Below, piece after piece: positions 2,406 to 62,654 of a DNA stretch of 64,000 bases; within the stretch, counting starts at the first letter, position 1, and each line of letters opens with the position of its first letter. The stretch is from a bacterium (GTDB lineage Bacteria; Patescibacteriota; Minisyncoccia; Moranbacterales; GWC2-37-73), in assembly GCA_037140955.1 (NCBI GenBank), contig JBAXDL010000005.1, positions 12,334-76,333 of the forward strand, read 5' to 3'. Position numbers and translations under genes: made by a program. The notes beneath the pieces are model-generated. The model searched no databases and was not told the DNA's origin. It worked only from the letters and a program-made list of their open reading frames with translations.

Positions 2406-4277
2406 ATGATTAGATTGCAAACAAAAAAAATTCAATTTATAAAATCGGATAAGTTTTTGTTGGGGTCGCTCTTTGTTGTGCTTGTTTTGCACTATGGAAA
2501 ACTTGTTTCTGCCTCAATTGATTTTTCATTGTTGGCTTTTTTTGCAAGTATTGCAACATTGCCTGTTTTGTATAGTGCCTATGAATCTCTTAGAAAAAAG
2601 AAGATCAATGTGGATTTGCTGGCTGGTGTGGCTCTGACTGTTTCACTGCTCAATCAGCAGTGGGCATCGGCTGTTTTTATTAATCTGATGCTAACTTCTG
2701 CCAGAATTTTTGATTTATATACACAAGACAGTGCACGCGATGCCATCAAGAGTTTGCTCAAACTTCGTCCGGATAGCGTGAAAATAAAAAAGGGAAATGA
2801 AATTGTTGAAGAATTGATTGCCAATATCAAAAAAGATGACCTGATTGTTGTTGAACTTGGCGAACGAATTGCAGTTGATGGTATTGTTGTTAGCGGGCAA
2901 GCCCAAATTGATCAATCATCACTCACTGGAGAGTCATTGCTCGTTGAGAAAAATGTTGGCGATACTGTTTTGAGTTCAACCATGAACATGTCTGGCTCTC
3001 TGATTGTGCGGGCTGAAAAAGTCGGAGAGGACACCACTTTTGAAAAAATGGTCAAATTGGTTGATCAATCACAAAAGGACAAGGCTGGAATTCAAACAAT
3101 AGCTGACAAGTTTACCGCTTGGTACATCACACTAACTTTTTTGGGTGCAATTTTGGTGTATGCTTTTTCAAGAGATTTGAATGTTGTTTTGTCTGTACTT
3201 CTGGTTACTTGCGCCGATGATATTGCGGTTGCTATTCCAATGGCTTTTTCTGCTGGAATGGCAAGTGCTGCCAGAAAAGGGATTATCATCAAGGGCGGTT
3301 CATTTTTGGAAGGCTTGATGCAGGTCAAGACAATTGTGGTTGACAAGACTGGCACATTGACTCGTGGAATGTTAAAAGTTGGTAGCGTGAAAGCATTTGG
3401 CGATAAAAAAGAGGAAGAAATTGTTTCTTTTGCAGCAAGTGCTGATTTTTTTTCGCAGCATCCTGTGGCGCGGGCTATAATTTCATATGCAAACAATAAC
3501 AACATTGAATTTGAAAAAACAGAAGAATTTGAGGAGCATTCAGGACAGGGGAGTCATGCAGTTTTGGGTGGAAAGAAAATTGTTTGTGGTAAACTTGCTT
3601 TTTTGCAAAATGAAGGTGTGAAAATTACTTTGCCTCAGCAGAAAATAATCGACAAAATCAAGAAAGATGGAGTCAGTAGTATGCTTTTGGTTGCCTACGA
3701 GAACAAGCTTGTGGGTCTTATTTTATTAGAGGATGAAGTGCGACCTGAAGCCAAAGAAACAATTAAAAGGTTGTATAAGCTTGGCATTGAAAATATTGTT
3801 ATGCTGACAGGTGATAATAGGAATGTTGCCAAAAATGTTGCAAATGAGCTTGGAATCAAAACCTTCCATGCCAATTTGTTGCCAGAGGATAAAATTAAAT
3901 ATATTAGGAAATATTTGAACAAGAAAAGCAAAGTCGCCATGATCGGGGATGGTGTCAATGATGCTGCTGCTTTGGCTTTGGCTGACATTGGAATCGCAAT
4001 GGGCGCGCTTGGCACAGATGTTGCAATTGAAGCTGCTGATGTGGCTCTCATGAAAGATGATTTTTCCAAGGTGGCTGAGGCAATTGAAATGGGTAGAGCG
4101 GTGGAAAAAATTTCTAGACAGGATTTTTGGTACTGGGGAATTGCAAATTCAATTGGTTTGGTGTTAGTTTTTACGAAAACAATAGGGCCGGAGGGGGCTG
4201 CTGCTTATAACTTTATTACTGATTTTTTCCCACTGCTAAATTCAATGAGAATGTTTGGCTTTAAGTTTAGAAAATAA
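2406..4277 (+). CDS. P1B-type (heavy-metal-like) P-type ATPase lacking an N-terminal metal-binding domain; non-canonical TM6 motif
   Basis: DKTGTLT phosphorylation site, GDGVNDAAAL hinge motif, SQHP motif (P1B hallmark); TM6 aligns to CopA but CPC is replaced by C-A-D (TCADD). Confidence 0.8.
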   Translation: MIRLQTKKIQFIKSDKFLLGSLFVVLVLHYGKLVSASIDFSLLAFFASIATLPVLYSAYESLRKKKINVDLLAGVALTVSLLNQQWASAVFINLMLTSARIFDLYTQDSARDAIKSLLKLRPDSVKIKKGNEIVEELIANIKKDDLIVVELGERIAVDGIVVSGQAQIDQSSLTGESLLVEKNVGDTVLSSTMNMSGSLIVRAEKVGEDTTFEKMVKLVDQSQKDKAGIQTIADKFTAWYITLTFLGAILVYAFSRDLNVVLSVLLVTCADDIAVAIPMAFSAGMASAARKGIIIKGGSFLEGLMQVKTIVVDKTGTLTRGMLKVGSVKAFGDKKEEEIVSFAASADFFSQHPVARAIISYANNNNIEFEKTEEFEEHSGQGSHAVLGGKKIVCGKLAFLQNEGVKITLPQQKIIDKIKKDGVSSMLLVAYENKLVGLILLEDEVRPEAKETIKRLYKLGIENIVMLTGDNRNVAKNVANELGIKTFHANLLPEDKIKYIRKYLNKKSKVAMIGDGVNDAAALALADIGIAMGALGTDVAIEAADVALMKDDFSKVAEAIEMGRAVEKISRQDFWYWGIANSIGLVLVFTKTIGPEGAAAYNFITDFFPLLNSMRMFGFKFRK

Positions 4278-15420: not shown

Positions 15421-15503
15421 GTGTCATTCCGGGCTTGACCCGGAATCTAGTTTGAATTATTAATTAAAGTGTAACATAGATTCCCGCTTTCGCGGGAATG
15501 ACA
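15421..15503. repeat. nested palindromic element: two 8-bp-stem hairpins (ATTCCGGG..CCCGGAAT and ATTCCCGC..GCGGGAAT) that are themselves inverted copies
   Basis: tgtcattccgggcttgacccggaatctag [26 nt] tagattcccgctttcgcgggaatgaca; followed by ttattttttttg. Confidence 0.5.
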
Positions 15504-15577
15504 ATAGCTATTATTTTTTTTGAACATTTGAATTTGTTTAGAAATTAAAAATTAGAAATTAAAAATTTTATACCATT

Positions 15578-19293: not shown

Positions 19294-19335
19294 AGATATT
19301 GCATGTTTGGTTTTTTTGATATAAAATTAAATTTA

Positions 19336-19471
19336 TGAATCCGGTAGTGAAAATTCAAAAGAAGGGAATATCGGATTGTTTCTGGAATGTTTTTAATCCA
19401 ATATGTAGCATTTTTATATAATTAAGAATTTTTTGAGCAAAGCTCATTTGAATTTCTACTACCGGATGAAT
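19336..19471. repeat. about 22-bp imperfect inverted repeat bracketing the secD 5' leader and start codon
   Basis: atgaatccggtagtgaaaattc ... gaatttctactaccggatgaat; the right arm contains the secD ATG. Confidence 0.5.
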
Positions 19472-21142
19472 ATAAAGAAAAAATTACAATTAAAATTTGG
19501 TGGGATTATTGTTTTGGCTTTAATGTGCGGCTTGTTTTCATATCCTCAAATTGTTAGCAAGGCTCCTCCTGTCTATGATTTTTTCAACAAGTTCAAGCTC
19601 AATCTCGGTCTTGATTTGCAAGGGGGATTTCATTTGGAATATAAGGCTGATGTTTCTAATATTGATTCAACAAAAGTTGCCGAGGCTATGCAAGGTGCGC
19701 AGACCGTCATCGAAAGACGAGTTAACGCTTTTGGTGTTGGCGAGCCATTGGTTCAAACAGCAAAAAGTGGACAAGAGAATCGTATTATTGTTGAATTGCC
19801 AGGAATAAAGGATATAGAAGAGGCAAAAACAAAAATCAAAGATGCTCCATTGTTGGAATTTAAAGAAGAAGGTCCGGTTGATGCTCAAGTTCAGCAAATG
19901 TTTGATCAAGCAAATCAGCAGGCAAAAGAAAAGGCTGCAAAAATTCTTGATGAGGTGAAAAATGGTGGTGATTTTGCGCAACTTGCAAAAGACAATAGTG
20001 AGGATCCAGGCTCAAAAGACAAAGGTGGTGATTTGGACTTTGTGAAAAAAGGAGCCTTTGTTCCTGAATTTGATAAAGTTTTGTTTGATTCAAATTTGAA
20101 GAATGGGGATATTTATCCTGATTTGGTTGAATCAACTTATGGATGGCATATTATCAAATTCATTGAATCTCGCGGTGAGGGTGCTGATTTGGAAGTTCAT
20201 GCTCAGCATATTCTTTTTTTGAAAAAAGATCCTTCTCAATATGATCAGTTCAAATATCAAACAACAGGATTGACTGGAAAAAATTTGAAAAGTGCTACTG
20301 CGCAATACTCTCAAGGACAAGGCCTTGGTGAGCCAGAGGTTGCTTTGCAATTTGATGAAGAAGGAACAAATCTTTTTGCTGAGTTGACCAAGAAAAACCT
20401 TGGCAAAAAAATAGCCATCTTTCTTGATGGAGAGTTGCAAATAGCTCCAACTGTTCAGGTTGAAATTACTAATGGTCAAGCGGTTATTACCGGAAATTAT
20501 ACTTTCAAAGAAGCAAAGGATATTTCTGACAGATTGAATCAAGGAGCGCTTCCAGTTCCTTTGACCTTGGTTGGACAACAGAGTGTTGAGGCAACTCTTG
20601 GGGCTGATTCGCTGCGAAGCATTTTGATTGCTGGTGCAATTGGACTTGGTGCAGTGATTGTCTTCATGCTTATCTTCTATCGCTTCTTGGGATTGGTAGC
20701 CTCACTGGCTTTGCTTATTTATACTGTTGCAATGATTACGCTTTTCAAGATGACTGGAATTACTTTGACACTTTCTGGTATTGCAGGGTTTGTGCTTTCA
20801 ATTGGAATGGCGGTGGACGCAAATATTTTGATTTTTGAAAGAACAAAAGAAGAAATTAGAGGTGGTCGCTCAATTGCAAACTCATTGGAAGAAGGATTCA
20901 AGCGTGCTTGGACTTCAATTCGTGATGGAAATGTTTCTTCATTGCTCACTTCTGGAATTTTGTACTTGATGGGAACTGGATTTGTGAAAGGATTTGCGGC
21001 TGCACTTTTCATTGGAGTAGTGGTTTCCATGTTTACTGCGGTGGTGATTACTCGTACAATGCTTAAGTTTATTATTAGTGATTGGATTCATGGAAGAACA
21101 TGGATGGTTGGAGTTAGAAAAAAGGATATTAAAAATGGATAA
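19466..21142 (+). CDS. secD: protein-export membrane protein SecD with an embedded parvulin (PpiC/PrsA-type) PPIase domain
   Basis: SecD P1 start 'GLDLQGGFH', C-terminal TM bundle 'GMAVDANILIFER'; internal segment 'NGGDFAQLAKDNSEDPGSKDKGGDLDFV...STYGWHIIK' matches the parvulin fold; the track ORF starts at an alternative TTG (19433). Confidence 0.85.
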   Translation: MNIKKKLQLKFGGIIVLALMCGLFSYPQIVSKAPPVYDFFNKFKLNLGLDLQGGFHLEYKADVSNIDSTKVAEAMQGAQTVIERRVNAFGVGEPLVQTAKSGQENRIIVELPGIKDIEEAKTKIKDAPLLEFKEEGPVDAQVQQMFDQANQQAKEKAAKILDEVKNGGDFAQLAKDNSEDPGSKDKGGDLDFVKKGAFVPEFDKVLFDSNLKNGDIYPDLVESTYGWHIIKFIESRGEGADLEVHAQHILFLKKDPSQYDQFKYQTTGLTGKNLKSATAQYSQGQGLGEPEVALQFDEEGTNLFAELTKKNLGKKIAIFLDGELQIAPTVQVEITNGQAVITGNYTFKEAKDISDRLNQGALPVPLTLVGQQSVEATLGADSLRSILIAGAIGLGAVIVFMLIFYRFLGLVASLALLIYTVAMITLFKMTGITLTLSGIAGFVLSIGMAVDANILIFERTKEEIRGGRSIANSLEEGFKRAWTSIRDGNVSSLLTSGILYLMGTGFVKGFAAALFIGVVVSMFTAVVITRTMLKFIISDWIHGRTWMVGVRKKDIKNG

Positions 21143-22074: not shown

Positions 22075-22215
22075 TTTAAATATAAATAATTTCGAAGTCT
22101 GAATTTTGAATTTTGAATCAAATCTGAATGATATAATGTTTTAAATATTAAAAATTAAATCATTGGAAATTAATTCAAAATTCAAAATTAGAAATTCAAA
22201 ATTAATAAAATCTAT

Positions 22216-24564: not shown

Positions 24565-24623
24565 ATTGAAGAATTTAAAATTTAGAACTTTGGATTTGAT
24601 TTAAAATTTAAAATTTAGAATTT

Positions 24624-27032
24624 ATGAAGTATAGCTATAATTGGCTCAAGGAACTCTCTGAAACAAAAAAAACAGCCACGCAGGTTGCTGATCTCATAAC
24701 AAAGCATTCTTTTGAAGTTGAATCGGTGGAAAAAATCGGATCTGATTTTGCTGGAATTGTGGTTGGAAAAATTTTGGAAATTTCCAAGCATCCCAATGCG
24801 GACAAACTGCAACTGACAAAGGTTGAGATTGGACAGGAATCTCCTTTGGACATTGTCTGTGGCGCTCACAACATTAGCGTGGGCGATCATGTTCCTGTTG
24901 CGACTGTTGGCACTAAATTGCCAAATGGAATTGAAATCAGAGAGGCTGAAATCAGAGGAATGAAATCTTTTGGAATGCTTTGCGCTGAAGATGAAATTGG
25001 TCTTGGAAAAAGTCACGCTGGAATTTTGATATTAGACAAGGAAATAGGAATAGGCACACCTTTGTCAGAAGTTTTTGCTAATAATGATGAAATTTTGGAT
25101 ATTAAGGTTTTGCCAGACAGAGCACATGATGCTGTTTCGCATGTTGCCATGGCCAGAGAAATTGTGGCACTTGAAGGTGGGCAGTTGGACTATGACTATG
25201 ACGGTCTGATTTTGGAGGGCAATGGAGAGGCAAATCTTGAAATTAAAATTGAAAATAGTGATCTTTGTCCCAGGTATATTGGAGCAAGACTTTCTGGTGT
25301 TACGGTTAAAAAATCTCCTGATTGGATGATTGCACGCTTGGAAGCTTGTGGTCTTAATGCAATCAACAACATCGTTGATGCGACGAATTATGTCATGCTA
25401 GAGCTCGGACAACCATTGCATGCTTTTGATGCTGATGTGGTTGGTAGTACCATTGTCACCAGACTTGCTAAGGATGAGGAAGAAATTGTCTTGCTGGATG
25501 GCAATGTTAAAAAACTTGCCTCAAGTGATATTGTTATTGCAAACAATGAGAAAGTTTTAGCTTTGGCTGGAATTATGGGCGGAAAGGATTCTGGAATTTC
25601 AGATCAAACAGAAAATATAATTCTGGAGGCAGCAAATTTTAAGGCAATTTCAATTAGAAGAACTCGCTCAAGATTGAACATGCTTAGTGATGCCTCCATG
25701 CGCTTTGAAAAAGAGCTTGATCCAAATCTAGCTGAAAAGGCTATGGTCAGGGTTATTGAAATTCTTGAACACACCGCCAATGCATCCTTTGAAGGATTTG
25801 TGGATGTGTATCCTGAAAAAGTGTCGCCGTGGAAAATAGAATTGGAAAAAGAATATATCGACAAATTGTTGGGGACCACCGTTCCTGCTGGTGTGAGTGA
25901 GAAAATTTTGAGTTCACTTGGCATTGAAATTGAAAGCAAGGATGAAAAAGTCTTAATAGTAACAATTCCAACATATAGAATTGATTTGAAATCACAAGAG
26001 GATTTGATTGAGGAAATAGGGAGAATTTATGGTTATGAAAAAATTCAAAATGTGGCACCACTTGTGCCAGTCACTGCTGCCAAACAAAACGAAGCAAGAA
26101 TTTTCGAGCGTAATGTGAAGAAACTTTTGATTGCCAGTGGTTTTTCTGAGGTTTTGAATTATTCTTTTTATTCTTTGCAAGATCAGAAAAATTCTCATTT
26201 TGAGCACATAAAACACTATGAGCTTGAAACACCGATGAATCCTGATCAAAACTTGCTACGCGTGAGCTTGCTTCCTAATATTTTCAAAAAAATTAGAGAA
26301 AATCTCAAAAATTATGGCGAGTTTAGTATTTTTGAAATAGGAAAGGTTTATTTGCCAAGCACGGAGCAATTGCCGCAAGAAAAATCAATGCTGGTTGGCG
26401 CAATGGTCTTTCCGAAAAAAGTCGCAAAAAAAGAAAAGCAAGATTTGCGTTTGGAATCAAACTTCTTTGAGTCAAAGTCTTTTATTAATAATCTTTTGCT
26501 TCAAATTGGAATCAGTGATCAATATTATGACAATTTTGACATTGATAATGGTGAAAATTCAAAACTTCTCTGGCATCAAGGAAGAAGTGCTGAAATAAAA
26601 ATAACAGGAAGTGGCAAATCATTGGGTCTTGTTGGTGAAATAAGTCCAAATGTTTTGAGAAAATATGACATTTCAAATAGGGTTGTTGTTTTTGAATTTG
26701 AAATGGAAAAAATGCTAGAAATTTCACGCAGCGAAAGGGAATATGCTCCAATTGGAAAATATCCAGTGGTGACTAGAGATATTTCACTGCTAGCACAAAA
26801 AAATGTGCGCATTGATGAAATTTTGATGATTATTCAGCGTGCAGGAGGAGATTTGGTGCTTGATGTTGATCTTTTCGATGCAATAGATTTTTCTGATGAC
26901 TCTTCGAGTTTTGCTTTTCACATTATTTTGGGAGCAAGTGAGCGAACATTGAATGGAAAAGAGGTTGATGAACTCATGAATGCGATTGTTGAAAAATTGG
27001 AAAGTGAATTGCAAGTCAAACTTCGCAGATAA
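24624..27032 (+). CDS. pheT: phenylalanine--tRNA ligase beta subunit
   Basis: tRNA-binding N-domain, B3/4 and B5 domains, FDX-ACB C-terminus. Confidence 0.95.
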   Translation: MKYSYNWLKELSETKKTATQVADLITKHSFEVESVEKIGSDFAGIVVGKILEISKHPNADKLQLTKVEIGQESPLDIVCGAHNISVGDHVPVATVGTKLPNGIEIREAEIRGMKSFGMLCAEDEIGLGKSHAGILILDKEIGIGTPLSEVFANNDEILDIKVLPDRAHDAVSHVAMAREIVALEGGQLDYDYDGLILEGNGEANLEIKIENSDLCPRYIGARLSGVTVKKSPDWMIARLEACGLNAINNIVDATNYVMLELGQPLHAFDADVVGSTIVTRLAKDEEEIVLLDGNVKKLASSDIVIANNEKVLALAGIMGGKDSGISDQTENIILEAANFKAISIRRTRSRLNMLSDASMRFEKELDPNLAEKAMVRVIEILEHTANASFEGFVDVYPEKVSPWKIELEKEYIDKLLGTTVPAGVSEKILSSLGIEIESKDEKVLIVTIPTYRIDLKSQEDLIEEIGRIYGYEKIQNVAPLVPVTAAKQNEARIFERNVKKLLIASGFSEVLNYSFYSLQDQKNSHFEHIKHYELETPMNPDQNLLRVSLLPNIFKKIRENLKNYGEFSIFEIGKVYLPSTEQLPQEKSMLVGAMVFPKKVAKKEKQDLRLESNFFESKSFINNLLLQIGISDQYYDNFDIDNGENSKLLWHQGRSAEIKITGSGKSLGLVGEISPNVLRKYDISNRVVVFEFEMEKMLEISRSEREYAPIGKYPVVTRDISLLAQKNVRIDEILMIIQRAGGDLVLDVDLFDAIDFSDDSSSFAFHIILGASERTLNGKEVDELMNAIVEKLESELQVKLRR

Positions 27033-39809: not shown

Positions 39810-39863
39810 TTAATTTTTTTTGATGATGATAGTTTGACTTATTGTTGCGAATTTTTAAAATAT

Positions 39864-39941
39864 TTATGCGGATATTGTTTTTTTGCGGCTTCCGTGTGAA
39901 CAAAGTGAACGAAAGGCAAGTAAAAAAACAATATCTGCATA
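39864..39941 (+). repeat. intergenic structured repeat element, copy 1 (terminal inverted repeats and conserved core)
   Basis: ttatgcggatattgttttttt | gcggcttccgtgtgaacaaagtgaacgaaaggcaagt | aaaaaaacaatatctgcataa. Confidence 0.8.
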
Positions 39942-39973
39942 AAATGAAGTTGTATAATTGATAAAATTTTAGT

Positions 39974-42098: not shown

Positions 42099-42124
42099 AA
42101 AAGTGAGAATATGTTGTTGCTAAA

Positions 42125-42208
42125 TTTTCATACTGATATTGTTTTTTTGTGGCTTCCGTATGAGCGCAGTGAATGAAAGGCAAGTAAAAAATAATATCAG
42201 TATGAAAA
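42125..42208 (+). repeat. intergenic structured repeat element, copy 2 (between xseA and xseB)
   Basis: ttttcatactgatattgttttttt | gtggcttccgtatgagcgcagtgaatgaaaggcaagt | aaaaaataatatcagtatgaaaa. Confidence 0.8.
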
Positions 42209-42243
42209 TTAAAAAATTAAATTCATAAGCTCTAAAAAAATAT

Positions 42244-42503: not shown

Positions 42504-43601
42504 ATGAGCACCAATAAGCCAAAAAAACGGGTAATTGTGGGCATGAGTGCCGGAGTTGATTCTTCTGTGGCTGCAGCACTATTGAAAGAACAAGGATATG
42601 ATGTCGTTGGTGTTTTTCTGCATTTTTGGAAAGAACCAGGTCAGAGTTCATTGATTGAAAACAAATGTTGCTCAATTGAGTCTCAGCAAGATGCCAGAAA
42701 AATTGCTCAAATTTTAGATATTCCACTCTATACAGTCAATGCTGCAAAGGAATTTAAGAAGGAAATTGTGGATTATTTTCTGGAAGAAATCAAGGCCGGA
42801 AGAACTCCAAATCCATGTGTGGTTTGTAATGAAAAGATTAAATTCAATTTTTTGTTTAAAAAAATGCTAGAAATGGATGCTGATTTTGTGGCAACTGGTC
42901 ATTATGCTAAATTGCAAAAAGTTGGAGATAAATTTCATTTGTACATTCCAACTGACAAAGAAAAAGATCAGACATATTTTTTGCACACGCTTGGTGAAAA
43001 ACAGCTTGCAAGAATCTTGTTTCCTCTGGGCGAGCTCAAAAAACCCGATGTCCGCAGAATGGCTGAAAAATTGAAATTGCCTGTTTTTGATAAGGAAGAT
43101 TCGCAAGGTCTTTGTTTTACTTCCGAAAAAACTCCTAATGAATTTTTGAAGCGTAATTTGAAATTGTCTGCTGGTGACATTGTTACAACTGAAGGTAAAA
43201 AAATTGGCACGCATTCTGGTTTGGAGCTGTATACTATTGGGCAGCGAAAAGGCGTGAACATTGGTGGTGATGGGCCATATTTTGTGGTTCAGCGAGATTT
43301 TGGCAATAATGTTTTGGTGGTCACGAACGACACTGTAAATGAAAAGATTTTCAAGAAAAATATGTCAGTGCAAATAAAGAATTGGTTGGGAGCTGAAATT
43401 GTTACTCCCTTGGAGCTTAATATTAAAATACGTTATAGACATCAAGCTGTGCGTGGTATAATCAAAAGTAGCAAGAAGAATAATGAAGGTTTGCTGATTG
43501 AGGTTGATTTTATTGAAGCGCAAAAAGCTGTTACCCCTGGCCAATCTGCAGTTTTTTATTCAGACAGTGAAGAGCTTTTGGGTGGTGGAGTTATTATCTA
43601 G
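42504..43601 (+). CDS. mnmA: tRNA-specific 2-thiouridylase
   Basis: PP-loop 'VGMSAGVDSSVAA', catalytic cysteines, 'YFLHTL'. Confidence 0.9.
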   Translation: MSTNKPKKRVIVGMSAGVDSSVAAALLKEQGYDVVGVFLHFWKEPGQSSLIENKCCSIESQQDARKIAQILDIPLYTVNAAKEFKKEIVDYFLEEIKAGRTPNPCVVCNEKIKFNFLFKKMLEMDADFVATGHYAKLQKVGDKFHLYIPTDKEKDQTYFLHTLGEKQLARILFPLGELKKPDVRRMAEKLKLPVFDKEDSQGLCFTSEKTPNEFLKRNLKLSAGDIVTTEGKKIGTHSGLELYTIGQRKGVNIGGDGPYFVVQRDFGNNVLVVTNDTVNEKIFKKNMSVQIKNWLGAEIVTPLELNIKIRYRHQAVRGIIKSSKKNNEGLLIEVDFIEAQKAVTPGQSAVFYSDSEELLGGGVII

Positions 43602-43764
43602 CGTAACGAGTGAAATGATTTGTCAGCAGACAAGCATTTCCGAGTGAGCGACGATACTAAAAGGTTTAATGCCCCGAGGCTTGCCTCGAAGACCCAATGG
43701 GTTCAGGGCTTGCCCTGGGGTATATGCCTTTTATTGTTTAATAAATTTTTTAAAATAAAAAAAT
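43602..43764 (+). other. GC-rich structured intergenic segment: candidate compound terminator or small RNA
   Basis: three short hairpins (cgagg-cttg-cctcg, accc-aat-gggt, caggg-cttg-ccctg) closed by atgccc/gggtat, then gccttttatt. Confidence 0.3.
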
Positions 43765-44022: not shown

Positions 44023-44048
44023 GTTTTTGAATATATTTTTCTGGTTTC

Positions 44049-44120
44049 ATGTAGATATTGTTTTTGCGGTTTACATGTGAACGCAGTGAGTGAAAGGTAA
44101 GCAAAAAAATAATTTAGCAT
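44049..44120 (+). repeat. intergenic structured repeat element, copy 3 (degenerate arms)
   Basis: atgtagatattgttttt | gcggtttacatgtgaacgcagtgagtgaaaggtaagc | aaaaaaataatttagcat. Confidence 0.65.
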
Positions 44121-44163
44121 AAAAAAGTTAATTTTATACGCTTTATAATTTATAAATAAATTT

Positions 44164-52852: not shown

Positions 52853-52879
52853 TTAGCACTCGGACTTGACGACTGCTAA
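52853..52879 (+). promoter_or_regulatory. CIRCE operator (HrcA binding site) upstream of hrcA
   Basis: TTAGCACTC-N9-GACTGCTAA (one mismatch in right arm); overlaps the -35 box and precedes TATAAT at 52889. Confidence 0.8.
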
Positions 52880-54584: not shown

Positions 54585-56501
54585 ATGAGTAAAATACTCG
54601 GAATCGATTTGGGAACAACAAATAGTGCTATGGCCATCGTTAGCGGTGGAAAGCCTGAAATTTTGGAAAACAAGGAGGGGAACCGCACCACACCTTCAAT
54701 GGTTGCAATTTCAAAAACAGGTGAGCGCCTTGCAGGACTCTTGGCCAAGCGTCAATCAGTAACAAATCCGGCCAATACTTTGTATTCTATTAAGCGATTA
54801 ATTGGACGAGCATATCATGATGCGGAAGTTCAACGTGATGAAAAATTGATGCCATATAAGATTGTCCATGCTGGTGAGAATGTCAAAGTTACTATGGGTG
54901 ATAAGGATTATTCTCCGCAAGAAATCTCTGCTATGATTTTGGGAAAACTCAAAGCTGACGCAGAAGAAAAACTTGGTGAAAAAATCACTGACGCTGTGAT
55001 CACTGTCCCAGCATATTTTGATGATGCCCAAAGAAAAGCAACCAAGGAAGCTGGAGAAATTGCAGGTTTCAATGTTCGTCGCGTGATCAATGAACCAACA
55101 GCTGCGGCTTTGGCGTATGGTTTTGACAAGAAAGCTGATGAAAAAATTGCAGTATATGATTTGGGCGGAGGAACTTTCGATATTTCAATTTTGGAAGTTG
55201 GTGGAGACACGGTTGAAGTGAAATCTACTAATGGTGACACTCATCTTGGTGGTGATGACTTTGATCAGATCATCATTCAATGGATTATTGATGAATTCAA
55301 AAAACAAGAAGGAATTGATCTTTCCAAGGATCCGCTTTCATTGCAAAGAATCAAGGAAGCTGCCGAAAAAGCTAAGATTGAGCTTTCAACTGCTGCTGAA
55401 ACCGAAATCAACCAACCATTCATCACTTCTGATGCCTCAGGTCCTAAGCATTTGGTGATGAAAATGAGTCGCGCAAAATTGGAAGAATTGGTTGGCGAGC
55501 TTGTGCAGAAAACTTTAGAGCCATTAAAGAAGGCACTAAGTGATGCAAAATTGACCGTTGGTGAGATTAATGAAGTTGTGATGGTTGGAGGAATGACTCG
55601 CATGCCGTTGGTTTTGCAAACAGTTGAAAAATTCTTTGGCAAAAAACCAAACATTACAGTTAATCCTGATGAAGTTGTGGCGCTTGGTGCAGCAATTCAA
55701 GGGGGAGTTTTGGAGGGAAGCGTGAAGGATGTGCTTTTGTTGGATGTGACACCTTTGACTTTGGGAATTGAAACAATGGGTGGAATTTCAACTCCATTGA
55801 TTGATCGAAACACCACAGTGCCAACTTCAAAGACTCAAACATTTTCAACTGCTGCTGACAATCAGCCTGGTGTGGAAATTCATGTGCTGCAAGGGGAGCG
55901 AGAGGTTGCTTCTGGCAACAAAACTCTTGGAAAGTTCTTGCTTGATGGAATCCCACCAGCACCGCGTGGAGTGCCACAAATTGAAGTTGAGTTTGACATT
56001 GATGCTAATGGAATTTTGAATGTGACTGCTAAAGACAAGGCAACTGGAAAATCACAATCAATCAAAATTGAAGCATCAAGTGGTCTTTCAAAAGAAGAAA
56101 TTGAAAAAATGAAAAAAGATGCTGAAATGCATGCCGAAGAGGACAAGCAAAAGAAAGAATTGGTTGAGGCTCGCAACATGGCTGATACACTTGTTTATAC
56201 AACTGAAAAAGCTATTAAGGATGCTGGTGAGAAAATAACTGAAGAGGAAATAAAACCAGTCAAAGAAGCAATTGAAGAATTGAACAAGGTGAAAAACGGT
56301 GATGACTTGAATGAGATCAAGGCCAAAACTGAAACACTTTCGCAAGCTGCGCAAAAAATTGGTGAAAAATTGTATGCTGCTGCTGAGCAAGCAAAGAAGG
56401 ATGAAACTGAATCCAATGCTGGAGCTGAGGGCGAAACAGTGAAAGAGGCTGAGGTTGAAGGTGAAAAAACAGAAGAGAAAAAAGACGAAGAAAAGAAATA
56501 A
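54585..56501 (+). CDS. dnaK: molecular chaperone DnaK (Hsp70)
   Basis: '[14 protein letters not shown]', 'DLGGGTFD'; start moved to the MSKI ATG (track ORF begins at 54573). Confidence 0.97.
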
Positions 56502-56526
56502 TTTTTCTTCAAAATGCAAAATGAAA

Positions 56527-56560
56527 AAGGCGGGGACATTTTTGTCCTCGCCTTTTTTTG
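56527..56560. terminator. bidirectional terminator
   Basis: aaaggcggggac/gtcctcgccttt stem followed by a T-run. Confidence 0.65.
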
Positions 56561-56563
56561 CCT

Positions 56564-56914
56564 TTATACTGTCATTAATACTTTTTCATGAATCTCGTTG
56601 AGATGCTTGATGATTTTCATGCGCAGATGCTTTTTGACTGGAATTGCACTGAGTTTTTTTTCAAAATCTTTTACGGTGACACGGAGAAACAATTCCATAC
56701 ATTTGCCAATCTTCTCCTTTTCCAAATCTTCCTTGACGCAGTTTGCGATGCTAATAAGATTTCCAATAGAAACCTTATCTCGCTCGCTTGACTCTCTGTA
56801 GTGTTGGTTACTTGTGCCTTGGATAAGTTCTTCCAGGGCATGTTGAATTTCAACACAGTTCTTTTTGATTTTTTCAATTACTTCAAAAATCCTAAGTCTG
56901 TCTCTGTTGTCCAT
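56564..56914 (-). CDS. hypothetical protein
   Basis: start placed at the internal ATG with aaaggag RBS (MDNRDRL...); the longer ORF runs to 57001. Confidence 0.45.
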   Translation of the reverse strand: MDNRDRLRIFEVIEKIKKNCVEIQHALEELIQGTSNQHYRESSERDKVSIGNLISIANCVKEDLEKEKIGKCMELFLRVTVKDFEKKLSAIPVKKHLRMKIIKHLNEIHEKVLMTV

Positions 56915-57080
56915 TTCTTTCTCCTTTTCTGTTGGTAATGTGCCTGGCGTGGTGCTTGGTTGCTGATTAAGCATTGAAACATACAATATGATTGCTGTCA
57001 ATGTTAAGCTTTACTAGCACGCAAAGGAAAATAGGAATATAATTCAAATATCAAATTCATTGCTTGTAAGTAAAAAATAA

Positions 57081-57875
57081 ATGCAAAGATTGTTAAAAAT
57101 TATTAAAATAATTTCGCTTATTATTTTTTTGACGGGTGTTATTTTTGGTTTGGAATTTTTTTGGCAAAAAAAGTCAAAAAATGCTGAAATAGTTGTGCCA
57201 AAGACTGAACAAGTTGAGTTAATTGCTGAGTCAGAAGTTGCAATCAAAAATATTGAGCCTGAAATCAAAAAAGAATCTTTGCCGCAAGAATTTTTGATTC
57301 AAGTTCCATTTTCTTCGCAGGCGCCAACTGGAAATTGGAAAAAGCAGCTATTTCAGGATGGTTGCGAAGAAGCCTCAGTTGTCATGGCTATAGCATGGAC
57401 TAAAAATAAAAAATTAACACCGGCGGGAGTTGAAAAGGAAATTATTGGGATTTCAAATTGGGAAAAGAGAATTTTTGGTTATGCTGTGGATGCCTCGTTG
57501 GTTGATGTGACAAGGATTGTTAATGAGTTCTATGGATATAAAAATGTTAAAATTATTTCAGGTGAAAATGCGCAAAATATCAAAGAGGAATTGGCAAAAA
57601 AATGTGTTTTGCTGGTGCCAGTTGACGGAAAAATTTTGGCAAACCCGCATTATACTTTTCCTGGTCCTGAGCAGCATATGCTTGTCCTGAAAGGTTTTGA
57701 TGACGAGCAAAAACAATTTATTGCAAATGACCCGGGAACAAAATTTGGCGAAAATTATGTCTATGATTATGACAAATTTGTTGCCGCTATTTGGAGTTAT
57801 CCATCTGGAAAAGAACATGCAAAATATCCAACCAATGGTAAAGTTGAGAAAAATATCATTTCAATTTGTAAATAA
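57081..57875 (+). CDS. secreted papain-like (C39_2-type) cysteine peptidase, putative
   Basis: N-terminal TM/signal; 'SSQAPTGNWKKQLFQDGCEEASVVMAI' (Q/C pattern), downstream His in 'PEQHMLVLKG'. Confidence 0.5.
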   Translation: MQRLLKIIKIISLIIFLTGVIFGLEFFWQKKSKNAEIVVPKTEQVELIAESEVAIKNIEPEIKKESLPQEFLIQVPFSSQAPTGNWKKQLFQDGCEEASVVMAIAWTKNKKLTPAGVEKEIIGISNWEKRIFGYAVDASLVDVTRIVNEFYGYKNVKIISGENAQNIKEELAKKCVLLVPVDGKILANPHYTFPGPEQHMLVLKGFDDEQKQFIANDPGTKFGENYVYDYDKFVAAIWSYPSGKEHAKYPTNGKVEKNIISICK

Positions 57876-57900
57876 TATTTTGTCTGACTTAAGTTTAATG

Positions 57901-57980
57901 CTCCTGCTGATATTGTTTTTTTGCTTGCCTTTTATTCGCTTCGCTCATACGGAAGCCGCAAAAAACAACATCAGTAGGAG
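57901..57980 (-). repeat. intergenic structured repeat element, copy 4 (inverted orientation)
   Basis: ctcctgctgatattgttttttt | gcttgccttttattcgcttcgctcatacggaagccgc | aaaaaacaacatcagtaggag; the core is the reverse complement of copies 1-3. Confidence 0.8.
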
Positions 57981-58057
57981 TATGTGCCAAAGATTGATTA
58001 TAAAAATATTTCTCAAAAGTGTGATATAATGGAAGAAATTAATCTTAATAATAAATT

Positions 58058-59113
58058 ATGAAACGCGATATAATTGAAATTGCCATTGGATCAGTGACTG
58101 TTATTTTTGCTTTTTGTTTTTGGCTGTTTGTGAAAAATGCCATTGTTGTTTCAACTGCAAGCACCTGGCTTGGACCAATTGTGGTGGCTTCATTTTTTTT
58201 GGTTTTTCTTTGTCTTAGCATCTTGCTTTTTCGTAGAATGATTTTTTTGGAAATTGTTTTGCTGCTCTCCTTGGCAACAAGTGCCTTTTTTGCTTTCAAT
58301 TGGTTGCAATTCGTCGTCATTGCCTTGGGTCACATCTTCATGTTTATTGCTGCTCGAAAAATCAGAAATGATATGGAACTTAATATTAAAATATCCCCAG
58401 TAAAATCTTTGCAAGCTGGAAAGACCTATCTTATTTTTGCAATATCGATCGTTGTGTGTATGCAGTATTTTTTGATTATTCGAGGATTTGAAGGTGAGAA
58501 AAAAGTGCCATATTTTGATGCTGGATTTGTTACTAAAAAAATTGCCATTCCTTTTTTGTCTTCGGTCAGTCCACAATTCAAGGCTTTGGAGAATGAGAAG
58601 TTGACTGTGGATGAGTTTGTTTTGCAATCGCAAAGTCAAATGGCAAAGGATGGTTTGACACAGGAAGAAGAAAAAATGCTGGATGAGCAATTGCCTGAAA
58701 AAATGACAGTTGCACAAAAAGAAATAATCAAAAAACAGGCCAGGGAAAATTTTTCAAACACTCAAGCTCAGATTACAGAAAAAAATAAAGTTTTGATTCT
58801 TGAAGCTGGCAGGAGACAATTTTCTGACATGGTCGGCACAAAAGTGACTGGCAATGAAAAGATTGGTGATGTTTTCACTGGACTTATAAACAATAGAGTT
58901 AATGGATATTTCAATCCAAAGGTTGGCGATGGCCAGAGCAATTCAACTCTTCCAATGATTTTGGCGATTGTTTTGTTTTTGATCGTCTTTCCTTTGGCTG
59001 TCTTGCTGTGCACTTTTTTGTTTTGGATTACTGGTTTTGTTTTGTATGTTCTGATCAAGTCAAAAGTTTTAGAGGTGAAATCCGTGATGATTTCCAAGGA
59101 AGTTTTGCAGTAA
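58058..59113 (+). CDS. hypothetical polytopic membrane protein
   Basis: 351 aa with TM helices at both ends. Confidence 0.5.
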   Translation: MKRDIIEIAIGSVTVIFAFCFWLFVKNAIVVSTASTWLGPIVVASFFLVFLCLSILLFRRMIFLEIVLLLSLATSAFFAFNWLQFVVIALGHIFMFIAARKIRNDMELNIKISPVKSLQAGKTYLIFAISIVVCMQYFLIIRGFEGEKKVPYFDAGFVTKKIAIPFLSSVSPQFKALENEKLTVDEFVLQSQSQMAKDGLTQEEEKMLDEQLPEKMTVAQKEIIKKQARENFSNTQAQITEKNKVLILEAGRRQFSDMVGTKVTGNEKIGDVFTGLINNRVNGYFNPKVGDGQSNSTLPMILAIVLFLIVFPLAVLLCTFLFWITGFVLYVLIKSKVLEVKSVMISKEVLQ

Positions 59114-59135
59114 AAACGGCTCTTTTTTGAAAAAA

Positions 59136-59162
59136 TTAGCACTCAGTCATGGGGATTGCTAA
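59136..59162 (+). promoter_or_regulatory. CIRCE operator upstream of dnaJ
   Basis: TTAGCACTC-N9-GATTGCTAA, followed by a TATAAT -10 box. Confidence 0.75.
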
Positions 59163-59217
59163 TTTTTTATTTTTGCTTTATAATAAATTGGTAATAAAAT
59201 TTAGTAAATTTATATAT

Positions 59218-60300
59218 ATGGCAAAGGATTATTATGATATTTTAGGGGTAAATAAAAACTCTACTGATGATGAAATAAAAAAGGCCTATCGAAAATTGGC
59301 ACACAAATATCATCCTGACAAGGCTGGTGGTGACAATGAGAAATTCAAGGAGATAAATTCGGCCTATCAGGTTCTTTCTGACAAGTCAAAGCGTCAACAA
59401 TATGACCAATTTGGCTCTGGTTTTGAACAGCGAGGTGGTGGATTTAGCGGAGGAGGCTTTAGCGGATTTTCATCGGCTGGTGGGCAAGATTTTGATTTTG
59501 GAGAGGGATTTGAGGACATTTTTTCTAATATTTTTGGCGGTGGAGGAGGTTCGCGAAATGCTGACATGCGCAGAGCTGGCAACGATATTCAGGTTGACAC
59601 TGAAATCACTTTTGAGGAAATGGTTGCTGGTGCTGTTCGGGAAATAAAATTATATCAAAAATTTCTTTGCGACTCTTGTCACGGTTCTGGCGGAGAGGCT
59701 GGATCAAAAGAGGAAGCTTGTCCAACTTGTCATGGTTCTGGTCAGGTGCACAAAAGTGTGAGCAGTTTTTTTGGCTCATTTTCACAGGCCTATGTTTGTC
59801 CAACTTGCCAAGGTATGGGAAAAACTTTTTCTCAAAAATGTCGCAAATGTCATGGAGATGGAAGGGTCAAACAGGAACGTAAGATTTCAGTGAAGATCCC
59901 TGCTGGAATTTCAAATGGACAAACAATTTCAATGCAAGGAGAGGGAGAGGCTGGTGAGCGCGGAGCAAAAAATGGAAATTTGTTTATTGTTGTGCATGTT
60001 ATTGCTCATGATTTGTTCACTCGCGAAGGAAATAATATTCTTTCAATTGAGCATATTCCATTTTCAAAAGCAGCGCTTGGTGACAAGATTGATGTGAAAA
60101 CCATAGATGAAACAGTGAAAATGAAAATTCCAGCTGGAACTCAGTCGGGAGAATTGTTTCGCATTAAGGGCAAAGGCGTGCCAAGTTTGGGGCGAGATTC
60201 TCGTGGTGATCATTTGGTAAAAATCGTTGTTGATGTTCCAAGAAACACTTCAAGAGAGCAAAAAAGAGTAATTGAGCAATTGCAGCAAGCAGGTTTGTAG
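59218..60300 (+). CDS. dnaJ: molecular chaperone DnaJ
   Basis: J-domain 'DYYDILGV...HPD', G/F region, four CxxCxGxG zinc motifs; start at MAKDYY. Confidence 0.95.
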
Positions 60301-60366
60301 TATAAATATTTTGTTTTTGTGAAAAGCTTCATCCTAAGGGGTGGGCTTTTTTTATTTATTATTATC

Positions 60367-60470
60367 GCATCAAGACTATTTGTTTTTGGGCACGTCACTG
60401 GTCGAAATCTATGACCACTGACTCTTGATTACTTTCATAATCAACGGCCCAAAAACAAATAGTCTTGATG
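60367..60470. repeat. perfect 25-bp inverted repeat enclosing two internal hairpins (104 nt)
   Basis: gcatcaagactatttgtttttgggc ... gcccaaaaacaaatagtcttgatgc; inner cactggtc/gaccactg and ttgatta/taatcaa stems. Confidence 0.75.
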
Positions 60471-60596
60471 CTAATGTGTGGTGTAATCTTGCTGTGTTTA
60501 TCATACATCACTATAACTATAAAAAAGAAGACAAAAAAACATAAAAGCGGTATAATTAAAAAGTAAATTGCAAAAAATAAAACTAAAATTAAAAAT

Positions 60597-62654
60597 ATGT
60601 TGAATAATCTTTTTGCTCCAAAATCAATCGCCATTGTTGGTGCTTCAAGCAAAAAAGGGAAAATAGGAACAGTGCTGGTTGATAATATTGCAAAGCTGGG
60701 ATATAAGGGCACGGTTTTCTATGTTAATCCGTCTTATAAGATTCTGAAGTTAAAGCGCTGCTACAGCGAATTGCATGATATTGAAAAACATGTTGACTTG
60801 GCAATAATTGCCGTGCCAGCCAAATTTGTGAATGATGTTATTGAAAAAAGCGCACATAAAATAAAAAATTTTGTGGTCATTTCTGCTGGCTTTTCAGAGA
60901 CAAATGCTGATGGGGTCAAAAGGGAACAAGCACTTTTGAAATTGGCAAAAAAACATGATTTGAATATTTTGGGTCCAAATTGTTTGGGCTTTATTTCAAC
61001 GGCAATAAAATTGAATGCTTCTTTTGCCGGTGGGATGCCTAATGCTGGAAATATTGCTTTTGTTTCTCAATCAGGGGCTTTGGCAGTGGCACTTATGGAC
61101 AGGGCGCAACAAGAACATATTGGTTTTTCTAATGTTATTTCTGTTGGAAACAAAATGCAACTTGATGAATCGCTATTGCTTGAATATCTTGCCAAGGATA
61201 AACAAACTAAGGTGATTGGAATGTATCTTGAAGGCATTGCTGATGGACAGAGGTTTATTGAAACAGCCAGGAGAATATCAAAAATAAAACCAATTGTAAT
61301 TCTAAAGGCCGGAAAAACAGAGAAGGCGCAAAAGGCTATTTCTTCTCACACTGGTGCCTTGGCTGGAAGTGATGATATTGTTGAGATTGCCTTTGAAAAA
61401 GCAGGTGTCATTAGGTCTAATAATTTAGAAGAATTTTTCGACTTGCTAACTTTGATTTCATTCGAGGAACCACCCAAGAATCAAAAAGTGGCCGTGATCA
61501 CCAATGCCGGCGGGGCTGGTGTACTCACTACAGATGCTTTTTTGGGAAAAGAGCTAGTGTTGGAAGATTTTTCAAAAAAAATAAAAGAGCAAATGCAAAA
61601 ATTTTTGCCAGAGGAATCATCACTTGAAAATCCTGTTGATTTACTTGGCGACGCAGCGGAAGACAGGTACAAGAATATTCTGGATGTTTTGAGTTTGCAA
61701 AAAATAGGCACAATTGTTTCAGTGCTTACCCCGCAACAACAAACTCCAGTTGAGAAAATAACAGATGTTATAATTGAAAACAAAAAACAAAGCCCAGCTG
61801 TGGTTGCAACAATTTTCATCGGAGGAACAAGGGTTAACAAATCGATTGAAAAATTAAAGAAAAATTCAATTTTAAATTTTGCTAATCCCGACAGTGCAAT
61901 TTTGGCTCTGGATAAATATTACAAATGGAGTGTTTTCAAAAAAGAAAAAGAAAGTGATGATGTTTGGCAGGCAAATGTTGCTCGTCAAAAACAAGTTGCC
62001 AAAATTATCATCGATGCCAAAGCTGAAAAAAGAACAGCACTATTCTTCTCTGAAGCAAGTTTGGTGATGAAGAAATATGGAATTTTGTCAACTGAACATT
62101 TTGAAATTATTCCTGGTCAAAATTTGCCAGAAATTAAAAATTTTCCAGTTGTGCTGAAAGTTGATAGTGATAAAGTGTTGCACAAGTCAGATAGACAGGC
62201 ATTAATACTTAACATTAAAGACAAAAATTCACTTGAAATAGCTGTAAGCAAGTTGAGAATTGATTTTGCTGAGGAGCGTTTGCTTGTGCAAACAATGCAG
62301 GACAAGCAAGTAGAAATTATTTTAGGCATAAAACGCGATAGTATTTTTGGTCCAGTTGTGGTCTATGGACTTGGTGGTATTTATACTGAAATTTTCAAAA
62401 TGGTTAACTTTATGATTCCTCCAATGTCGCTGGATAGTATTAAAAAGCAAATATTGAAAAGTAAAATAAGCTTCTTGTTTTTAGGTGCGCGTGGTCAAAA
62501 ACCCTATGACCTTGACGAATTTTCAAATGTTATTTTTGGGCTGATGAATTTTGCGCTTGAAAATGATGATGTACTTGAGTTTGATATTAATCCATTGTTT
62601 ATATATAATGATAAAAGAAAATCATGTGGAGTTGATATTAAAATAGTTATTTAG
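60597..62654 (+). CDS. ADP-forming acetyl-CoA synthetase (fused CoA-binding and ATP-grasp domains)
   Basis: 'IAIVGASSKKGKIG', 'ILGPNCLG', 'VSQSGAL' (succinyl-CoA-synthetase-alpha-like) plus C-terminal ATP-grasp. Confidence 0.85.
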   Translation: MLNNLFAPKSIAIVGASSKKGKIGTVLVDNIAKLGYKGTVFYVNPSYKILKLKRCYSELHDIEKHVDLAIIAVPAKFVNDVIEKSAHKIKNFVVISAGFSETNADGVKREQALLKLAKKHDLNILGPNCLGFISTAIKLNASFAGGMPNAGNIAFVSQSGALAVALMDRAQQEHIGFSNVISVGNKMQLDESLLLEYLAKDKQTKVIGMYLEGIADGQRFIETARRISKIKPIVILKAGKTEKAQKAISSHTGALAGSDDIVEIAFEKAGVIRSNNLEEFFDLLTLISFEEPPKNQKVAVITNAGGAGVLTTDAFLGKELVLEDFSKKIKEQMQKFLPEESSLENPVDLLGDAAEDRYKNILDVLSLQKIGTIVSVLTPQQQTPVEKITDVIIENKKQSPAVVATIFIGGTRVNKSIEKLKKNSILNFANPDSAILALDKYYKWSVFKKEKESDDVWQANVARQKQVAKIIIDAKAEKRTALFFSEASLVMKKYGILSTEHFEIIPGQNLPEIKNFPVVLKVDSDKVLHKSDRQALILNIKDKNSLEIAVSKLRIDFAEERLLVQTMQDKQVEIILGIKRDSIFGPVVVYGLGGIYTEIFKMVNFMIPPMSLDSIKKQILKSKISFLFLGARGQKPYDLDEFSNVIFGLMNFALENDDVLEFDINPLFIYNDKRKSCGVDIKIVI

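Follow-up and report, generated by a model that had tools for sequence, protein, structure and literature searches.

An inverted copy of a dispersed non-coding hairpin element in Candidatus Moraniibacteriota and its possible kinship with mobile palindromic repeats

The spacer between a C39-like peptidase gene and a membrane-protein gene, within the hrcA-grpE-dnaK...dnaJ region of the 64-kb stretch of DNA analysed here (the window), carries a hairpin element that lies antisense to both of its neighbours (copy 4; Table 1). A preliminary description had presented it as the fourth copy of an element, here called type A, inserted in the opposite orientation to the other three. This inverted copy is real: the core, the T7 and A6 runs and the arms are as described, and the covariance model R1, introduced below, scores it at 91.6 bits on the minus strand (E about 1e-18) against 27.9 bits on the plus strand. 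The 15-nt arms, said to be complementary with a single G-U pair, do pair and do contain that wobble (57906·57975) next to 13 Watson-Crick pairs, but an A·C mismatch (57912·57969) had been overlooked; on the opposite strand the G·U and the A·C exchange roles. Arm pairing continues for three further positions, which extends the element to 57898-57983. Read as its reverse complement, the core fits the degenerate family pattern with 0 mismatches, and it is identical to the inter-genome consensus at 33/37 positions and to copies 1, 2 and 3 at 30/37, 32/37 and 27/37, respectively. The preliminary description had raised the prospect that copy 4 might share nothing but its A/T runs with the others; this is not the case, because the similarity of the core reaches far beyond those runs. 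Core pair 12-26 is A-U in copy 4 and G-C in the consensus, a compensatory change. An independent Logan assembly (L020) is 100% identical across window positions 56165-60875, and the inversion is therefore no assembly artefact of one contig.

Table 1. Coordinates of the hairpin elements in the window and of the parts of copy 4.
Feature	Position	Strand	Remarks
Copy 1 (type A)	39863-39943	+	flavodoxin-like gene / 199-aa membrane-protein gene; R1 100 bits
Copy 2 (type A)	42123-42210	+	between xseA and xseB; R1 87.4 bits; 25-bp stem
Copy 3 (type A)	44044-44124	+	upstream of alaS; R1 59.7 bits
Copy 4, whole type-A hairpin element	57898-57983	- (core sense strand)	R1 match 57897-57984, 91.6 bits; arm alignment
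Copy 4, left arm	57901-57915		ctcctgctgatattg; pairs with 57966-57980; 13 Watson-Crick + 1 G·U + 1 A·C
Copy 4, T7 run	57916-57922		pairs with A6 run 57960-57965
Copy 4, conserved 37-nt core	57923-57959	-	GCGGCTTCCGTATGAGCGAAGCGAATAAAAGGCAAGC on minus strand, gcttgccttttattcgcttcgctcatacggaagccgc on plus strand
Copy 4, A6 run	57960-57965		
Copy 4, right arm	57966-57980		caacatcagtaggag
Type-B element	60367-60471		25-bp perfect stem, T-rich run, GGGC/GCCC clamp, 55-nt structured core

The degenerate pattern consists of the columns that are invariant among the four window copies. It matches the window at 39887, 42151 and 44068 on the plus strand and at 57924 on the minus strand, where 100 shuffles give an expectation of 0.00 matches. 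The covariance-model search that had been proposed beforehand was carried out with R1, which, like the underlying alignment (A1), was built from 19 copies; it finds exactly four copies in the window, with copy 4 on the minus strand, one further copy in about 220 kb of loci (L005:3954-4034), and none in about 184 kb of loci of relatives without the pattern (about 120 kb when near-duplicates are counted once). Outside the window the pattern was recovered from the Candidatus Moraniibacteriota MAGs JAAXWW01, DAOKZJ01 and JBBQCF01, from JGI metagenome contigs, especially Ga0194059, and from a Bdellovibrionales-binned contig that is identical to the older contig AMFJ01024284. Exact-pattern matches occur in at least five Moraniibacteriota MAGs or metagenome populations, and more than 15 copies lie outside the window in addition to the 4 inside it. 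Two further matches (L007 and L018), both without a hairpin, were discarded as chance.

Every genuine copy has the same anatomy, in which a variable outer stem of 15-29 bp leads through 4-9 T into the 37-nt core and back through 4-8 A into the complementary arm, giving a length of about 80-95 nt; several of the stems are perfect over 25-26 bp. Copy 1 has a 22-bp outer stem with one G·U and folds at -31.6 kcal/mol (z -6.7). Copy 3 is partly decayed, with a core at 27/37, a broken outer stem and a fold z-score of -0.3. The copy at L005 3954-4034, which lies between ssb and efp, is a variant with a core shorter by 8 nt at the apex (GCGGCTTCCGTGCGAAGCGAAAGGCAAGC) and an outer stem that in the MFE fold reaches about 30 bp and includes a perfect run of 19 bp; because it is well paired in the absence of the 8 apical nucleotides, the apical helix is dispensable for the persistence of the hairpin.

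Searches against known families gave no counterpart to type A. A search of the whole window against Rfam 15 gave nothing that reached a gathering threshold; with the limit relaxed to E<=10, the element drew generic miRNA-precursor hairpins, whose 12-30 bits compare with cut-offs of 56-211, and a Phe leader that stayed below threshold. Viral contig collections scanned with the pattern contain no type-A copy, BLAST against phage and plasmid collections gave no match, and a tRNA/tmRNA search of the window found none. Nothing relevant was found in the literature on repeats, MITEs or REP elements of CPR (candidate-phyla-radiation) bacteria, Patescibacteria or Moranbacteria.

The consensus fold is a single long irregular hairpin. 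Within it 90.1% of cells are paired, against 44-50% when the partners are slid by 1-3 columns, and double-change cells number 105, against 25-33 in the slid controls; none of 500 shuffles reaches the observed covariation. Inside the core, pair 16-22 is G-C in 10 copies and A-U in 8, and pair 12-26 exchanges G-C for A-U across copies. The core contains tandem G·A pairs beside a GAA-type triloop, an AAA bulge, and a C·C or bulged C. We read the tandem G·A pairs as part of a plain helix since pair 12-26 covaries; a K-turn, a hammerhead and group II domain V, compared by eye, misfit in register. Coding potential was rejected for the core on the ground that its variation is pairwise compensatory.

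Two invariant U·G wobbles in the core become A·C mismatches on the other strand, and the sense strand folds at -31.6, -30.9 and -24.1 kcal/mol where the antisense strand reaches -23.2, -24.8 and -18.3 kcal/mol. Together with the R1 scores (92 against 28 bits for copy 4), these differences assign the core fold to one strand, as RNA or as single-stranded DNA, and they do not bear out, for the core, the earlier suggestion of an RNA active from either strand. The outer duplex forms in both orientations; as a third sign of the strand difference, its arms hold 17 G·U against 7 A·C, although 8 of the 17 G·U are one inherited position adjoining the T run.

A common origin of the arms can be recognised across copies and genomes (...CATACTGATATTG, CATGTAGATATTG, CATGTAAATATCA, CCTGCAGATATT; TTTCATACTGATATTG, TTTCATGTAGATATTG, TTTCATGTAAATATCA, CTCATACGAATATTA, CCTGCAGATATTATCA, CTCCTGCTGATATTG); their divergence rises with distance from the core, and nearly all of it is compensated. 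In view of this homology, the copied unit is the whole hairpin and not the core alone, and the ancestral form can be given roughly as TTTCATGCAGATATTG-T7-(37-nt core)-A7-CAATATCTGCATGAAA. The insertion of a bare core into existing terminator loops was rejected on the same homology and on the absence of empty palindromes of this family from the window. Between genomes in which the DNA of orthologous genes is no more than 65-76% identical, the core keeps an identity of about 90%, a degree of conservation that is inflated in part by ascertainment, as the searches of the collections required a conserved core. The copies in the window resemble one another no more than they resemble foreign copies. 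These two observations argue for continuing selection on the core; the second in particular makes a recent burst less likely and favours purifying selection on the core over a long time, for which a purely selfish element offers no obvious explanation.

The genes next to about 20 copies are unrelated housekeeping genes, namely flavodoxin-like, xseA|xseB, mnmA, alaS, C39-like peptidase and membrane-protein genes in the window and ssb|efp|smpB, ybeY|dgkA, topA, gyrB, parA, UDG and grpE|dnaK in other genomes. The element is therefore no gene-specific regulatory site, in agreement with what the preliminary description had argued for copy 4, and the occurrence in both orientations on which that argument drew extends to the other genomes: about 9 copies are co-oriented with their flanking genes, 4 are antisense to both and about 6 stand in mixed (convergent or divergent) settings, with no significant bias. 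Orientation has no consistent relation to local strand composition. No transposase, integrase, HUH or reverse transcriptase gene adjoins any copy, the 1-21-kb loci examined hold no transposase at all, and no consistent direct repeat that could represent a target-site duplication flanks the 19 copies, one possible 7-nt repeat being confined to L015. The copies have no terminal sequence in common, and their outer ends vary in sequence and in length (15-29 bp). There is no U-tract 3' of the hairpin on either strand. Canonical terminators are present nearby in the window, with 13-15-bp stems, tiny loops and T tails, and a terminator scanner calls other sites and not the type-A copies.

Orthologous spacers provide a comparison of sites with and without the element. 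The xseA-xseB spacer measures 145 nt with copy 2 in the window and 9-31 nt in six relatives (L024, L026, L028, L029, L031 and L034; XseA about 60% identical), and the element, which lands between genes in either orientation, here splits an otherwise tightly coupled pair. One of these relatives, L028, is syntenic with the window over about 27-49 kb and is without copies 1-3; at the position of copy 3 it has a 77-aa ORF with spacers of 4 nt and 22 nt. The grpE-dnaK spacer holds the element in L015 and unrelated sequence in the window. This patchy presence among related genomes fits gain by insertion; differential loss may also have given rise to the empty sites, since the relatives that possess them are distant. 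The comparison of spacers in sister genomes, which had likewise been suggested, thus finds the element absent from orthologous positions at a distance too great to fix an exact boundary, and the collections hold no closer relatives from which one could be read (the best XseA match is 62% and the best C39 peptidase match 48% identical). The proposal that the element is mobile gains from these element-free spacers; mobility itself is something that we infer, as no exact boundary of an empty site, target duplication or mobilising enzyme was found.

The xseA-xseB neighbourhood of the relatives has a further feature of its own. In L024, L026, L031 and L034 a tyrosine-recombinase gene lies one or two genes downstream of xseA-xseB, the gene in between is a HEPN-domain gene where annotated, and phage-like genes are found nearby; the whole recombinase block is absent from the window.

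On balance, and by a modest measure, we consider it probable that copy 4 is one copy of an undescribed family of short, non-coding, palindromic interspersed repeats present in some Candidatus Moraniibacteriota, and that the family is non-autonomous and mobile. By analogy, its kin in kind would be the REP/REPIN, ERIC, Correia/NEMIS and other MITE-like repeats, and its lifestyle would come closest to those of Correia/NEMIS, REP/REPIN and ERIC. The copies would have arisen by insertion. The irregular GC-rich apical hairpin would probably serve as a sequence-specific handle, read in single-stranded form by a propagating or binding factor, which could be a mobilising enzyme or an RNA-binding protein, and the arms would need only to pair. 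Read-through RNA would, in either orientation, contain a duplex of at least 22 bp, on which RNase III would be expected to act and at which 3' exonucleases would be expected to stall; for this reason the element probably also punctuates or stabilises neighbouring mRNAs, like Correia and REP elements. Classical cut-and-paste MITE mechanics do not fit, because a target duplication, a conserved terminus and an adjoining transposase are all absent. As in MITEs, there are multiple dispersed non-coding copies that are present or absent at orthologous spacers (xseA-xseB, grpE-dnaK); conserved terminal inverted repeats and a target-site duplication for each copy are missing, and the inverted repeats of type A are its arms, with a conservation that falls outward.

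The named repeat families illustrate both sides of this kinship. Correia/NEMIS elements of Neisseria are MITE-like, and their inverted ends are co-transcribed and fold into an RNA hairpin that is cut by RNase III. They are non-coding intergenic repeats of about 100-150 nt that form a long RNA hairpin and lie in either orientation beside housekeeping genes, a pattern which type A resembles, and the type-A stems, at 20-29 bp, would be long enough for cutting of the same kind. However, the terminal inverted repeats of Correia/NEMIS elements, 26 bp in length, are conserved, the target duplication is TA, and an IHF site lies inside the element, whereas in type A the termini are the least conserved part and the apical 37 nt are conserved, there is no duplication, and there is no similarity in sequence. 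REP/REPIN elements are alike in being short intergenic palindromes without target duplications, found in both orientations and probably read as folded single strands; REP elements are thought to stabilise upstream mRNA. In REP elements the arms, with their 5' GTAG, are conserved while the loops vary; copies number in the hundreds, and a RAYT (Y1 HUH) gene is flanked by the repeats. Type A differs in its variable arms, conserved loop, lack of GTAG and density of about 1 copy per 16 kb in the window, and no RAYT gene is present among the neighbouring genes examined around type-A copies. The ERIC/IRU, BOX, RUP and bcr1 repeats are intergenic imperfect palindromes of about 100 nt that lie within mRNAs, are restricted to lineages and are conserved over their full length; type A is also an intergenic, lineage-restricted imperfect palindrome but has no sequence relationship to them, and we know of no family of this type described from candidate-phyla-radiation bacteria.

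The attC sites of integrons resemble type A in that a hairpin structure is kept while the arm sequence varies, in their position between genes and in their recognition as a folded single strand. They have conserved outer R''/R' boxes (RYYYAAC/GTTRRRY) around a variable centre and form promoterless cassette arrays beside an integrase; type A lacks these boxes, the genes between its copies are xseA, xseB, mnmA and similar ones, and there is no integrase in the window. TIGR arrays and stem arrays occur in candidate-phyla-radiation bacteria, with ~36-nt units and, in stem arrays, hairpins with conserved loop motifs, and TIGR units stand in tandem next to a Tas gene with a Nop domain, and their 9-nt spacers vary without covariation (PMC12045711). 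The CPR hosts and the unit size of about 36 nt recall the 37-nt type-A core, but type-A copies are dispersed singletons, about 2 kb or more apart, with an invariant loop and with variable arms that are complementary. An identity with TIGR-Tas was rejected on this misfit of architecture and on the absence of a Nop-domain protein near the copies. Since the defining features of each family are missing, and since the apex is conserved and the ends vary, we place the element outside every named repeat family.

A second family, type B, is represented in the window at 60367-60471, between the canonical dnaJ terminator and the next promoter. Its stem ends in a T-rich run, TTTGTTTTT, which is matched on the other arm by AAAAACAAA, and its 55-nt core contains two hairpins. 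A homologue in L011 (about 3178-3275) adjoins a type-A copy; there the core is conserved, the stem is different, and the inner hairpin has a compensatory change. Five matches to the type-B pattern in viral contigs lie in GC-rich coding DNA and were set aside as chance. A long hairpin in L015 (about 3010-3095) has T/A runs around a different GC-rich core (GTTTCTGCCTGATGCTTTTT ... AAAAAACATCGAGTAGAAAC) and may represent a third family of the same architecture. In view of type A, type B and the L015 hairpin, the design of a stalk, an A/T neck and a structured cargo is generic in these genomes.

Of the alternatives to a mobile repeat, a host-functional structured RNA module within mRNAs carries appreciable weight, although we think it unlikely. 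Such a module would be an intercistronic processing or stability element, a site for RNase III or a barrier to 3' exonucleases with a conserved apical loop that binds a host protein, and it would be selected locus by locus and not spread selfishly. The pattern of conservation is one typical of functional RNA, with an irregular apex that does not vary, helices that covary and, on one strand, U·G wobbles that are invariant. The compensatory pairs 12-26 and 16-22 inside the core, the divergence of copies within a genome, which equals that between genomes, and the position between co-directional genes, which is the commonest arrangement, point the same way, as do the signs of continuing selection on the core. 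However, of about 20 copies at least 4 run antisense to the genes on both sides and are equally conserved, the positions differ between genomes, the neighbours have no regulon-like coherence, and the type-B element, placed between a canonical terminator and the promoter that comes next, is outside any obvious mRNA.

The generic architecture of stalk, neck and cargo gives rise to a more speculative reading, which we regard as doubtful, namely that the elements are RNA cassettes in which the long duplex stalk excises or presents a 37-nt or 55-nt structured RNA that binds a dedicated protein. If true, the elements would not be inert selfish repeats but a new class of small-RNA modules in CPR bacteria, dispersed and mobile, with a cargo that acts on the genome or transcriptome of these reduced symbionts. 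A related version, in which each element is a stand-alone sRNA gene and the stem an RNase III processing stalk that releases a trans-acting cargo of 37 nt (type A) or 55 nt (type B), much as processing stems flank rRNAs, strikes us as improbable. It would account for two different conserved cargos within a common architecture of stalk, T/A runs and GC clamp, and for a stem of always at least two helical turns, and copies 1 and 4 are closely preceded, on the sense side, by promoter-like hexamers or -10 boxes. Yet -10-like boxes accompany 5 of the 19 copies on the sense side and 2 of 19 on the antisense side, a difference that in AT-rich DNA lacks significance, no terminator follows the hairpin, and the copy at L005:3954-4034 is well paired without 8 nt of the cargo apex.

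We would give still less credence to a signal in single-stranded DNA, be it a recombinase or nickase site (attC-like, or a substrate of a REP/IS200-type Y1 HUH enzyme) or a priming signal in replication or DNA uptake. The structure is strand-specific and yet independent of the direction of transcription, target-site duplications are lacking, as they are for HUH-mobilised elements, and the irregular, bulged apical hairpin is of the kind that such enzymes read; but there are no R'/R'' core sites of attC and no conserved GTAG, no integrase or Y1 transposase is near any copy, and orientation does not track local strand composition. Finally, chance similarity, an ordinary intrinsic terminator or a gene-specific leader, which the many T/A runs of AT-rich DNA and the position downstream of a gene might bring to mind, is very improbable given 4 matches where 0 were expected, the R1 E value of about 1e-18, T and A runs that lie inside the hairpin with nothing U-rich after it, the different appearance of genuine terminators in the window, and the unrelated neighbouring genes.

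CPR bacteria have genomes of about 1 Mb that are regarded as streamlined and repeat-poor, and to our knowledge almost nothing has been described of their non-coding RNA repertoire. A dispersed hairpin repeat that stands even between xseA and xseB, and whose apical module varies less from genus to genus than the proteins encoded around it (a contrast that is inflated by retrieval through the core), would mark either an active system of mobilisation in these bacteria or an RNA-protein interaction that they share. The covariance model is ready for use in annotation, where it would avoid confusion with terminators, leaders and microRNA-like hairpins, and the copies are natural insertion-polymorphism markers for strain tracking in metagenomes.

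The window contains several other structured or repeated sequences. A structured non-coding region of about 150 nt at 43596-43745 (+) recurs in L021 (3806-3960) and, in reverse, in L022 (975-1134); it is 80-89% identical between genomes with proteins about 50% identical, and its neighbours are different in each. It has two CUUG-capped hairpins and one hairpin with a GA-rich internal loop, matches nothing in Rfam, and probably represents a small RNA gene of an unknown kind. A kinship of this region to the type-A core through TTCCGAGTGAGCGA was rejected, the local match of 13/14 falling to chance level over the full core. Two CIRCE-type operators (TTAGCACTC-N9-GAnTGCTAA) lie upstream of hrcA (52853-52879) and of dnaJ (59136-59162), and this pair fits control by HrcA of the split hrcA-grpE-dnaK ... 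dnaJ region. At 22100-22189, AT-rich inverted repeats of AATTTTR heptamers (AATTTTGAATTTTGAAT ... ATTCAAAATTCAAAATT) surround a spacer that contains TATAAT; a similar repeat is found at L011 599-687 and related direct copies at 15525-15567 and 24588-24630, and these may be promoter-associated or protein-binding repeats. The intergenic region upstream of secA (15421-15510) has a pair of hairpins, GTCATTCCGGGCTTGACCCGGAATCTAG ... ATAGATTCCCGCTTTCGCGGGAATGAC, the outer parts of which are mutually complementary. Just upstream of a secD-like gene, at 19334-19472, there is a 29-nt inverted repeat that is 83% complementary, with an 81-nt spacer that carries a TATATAAT motif.
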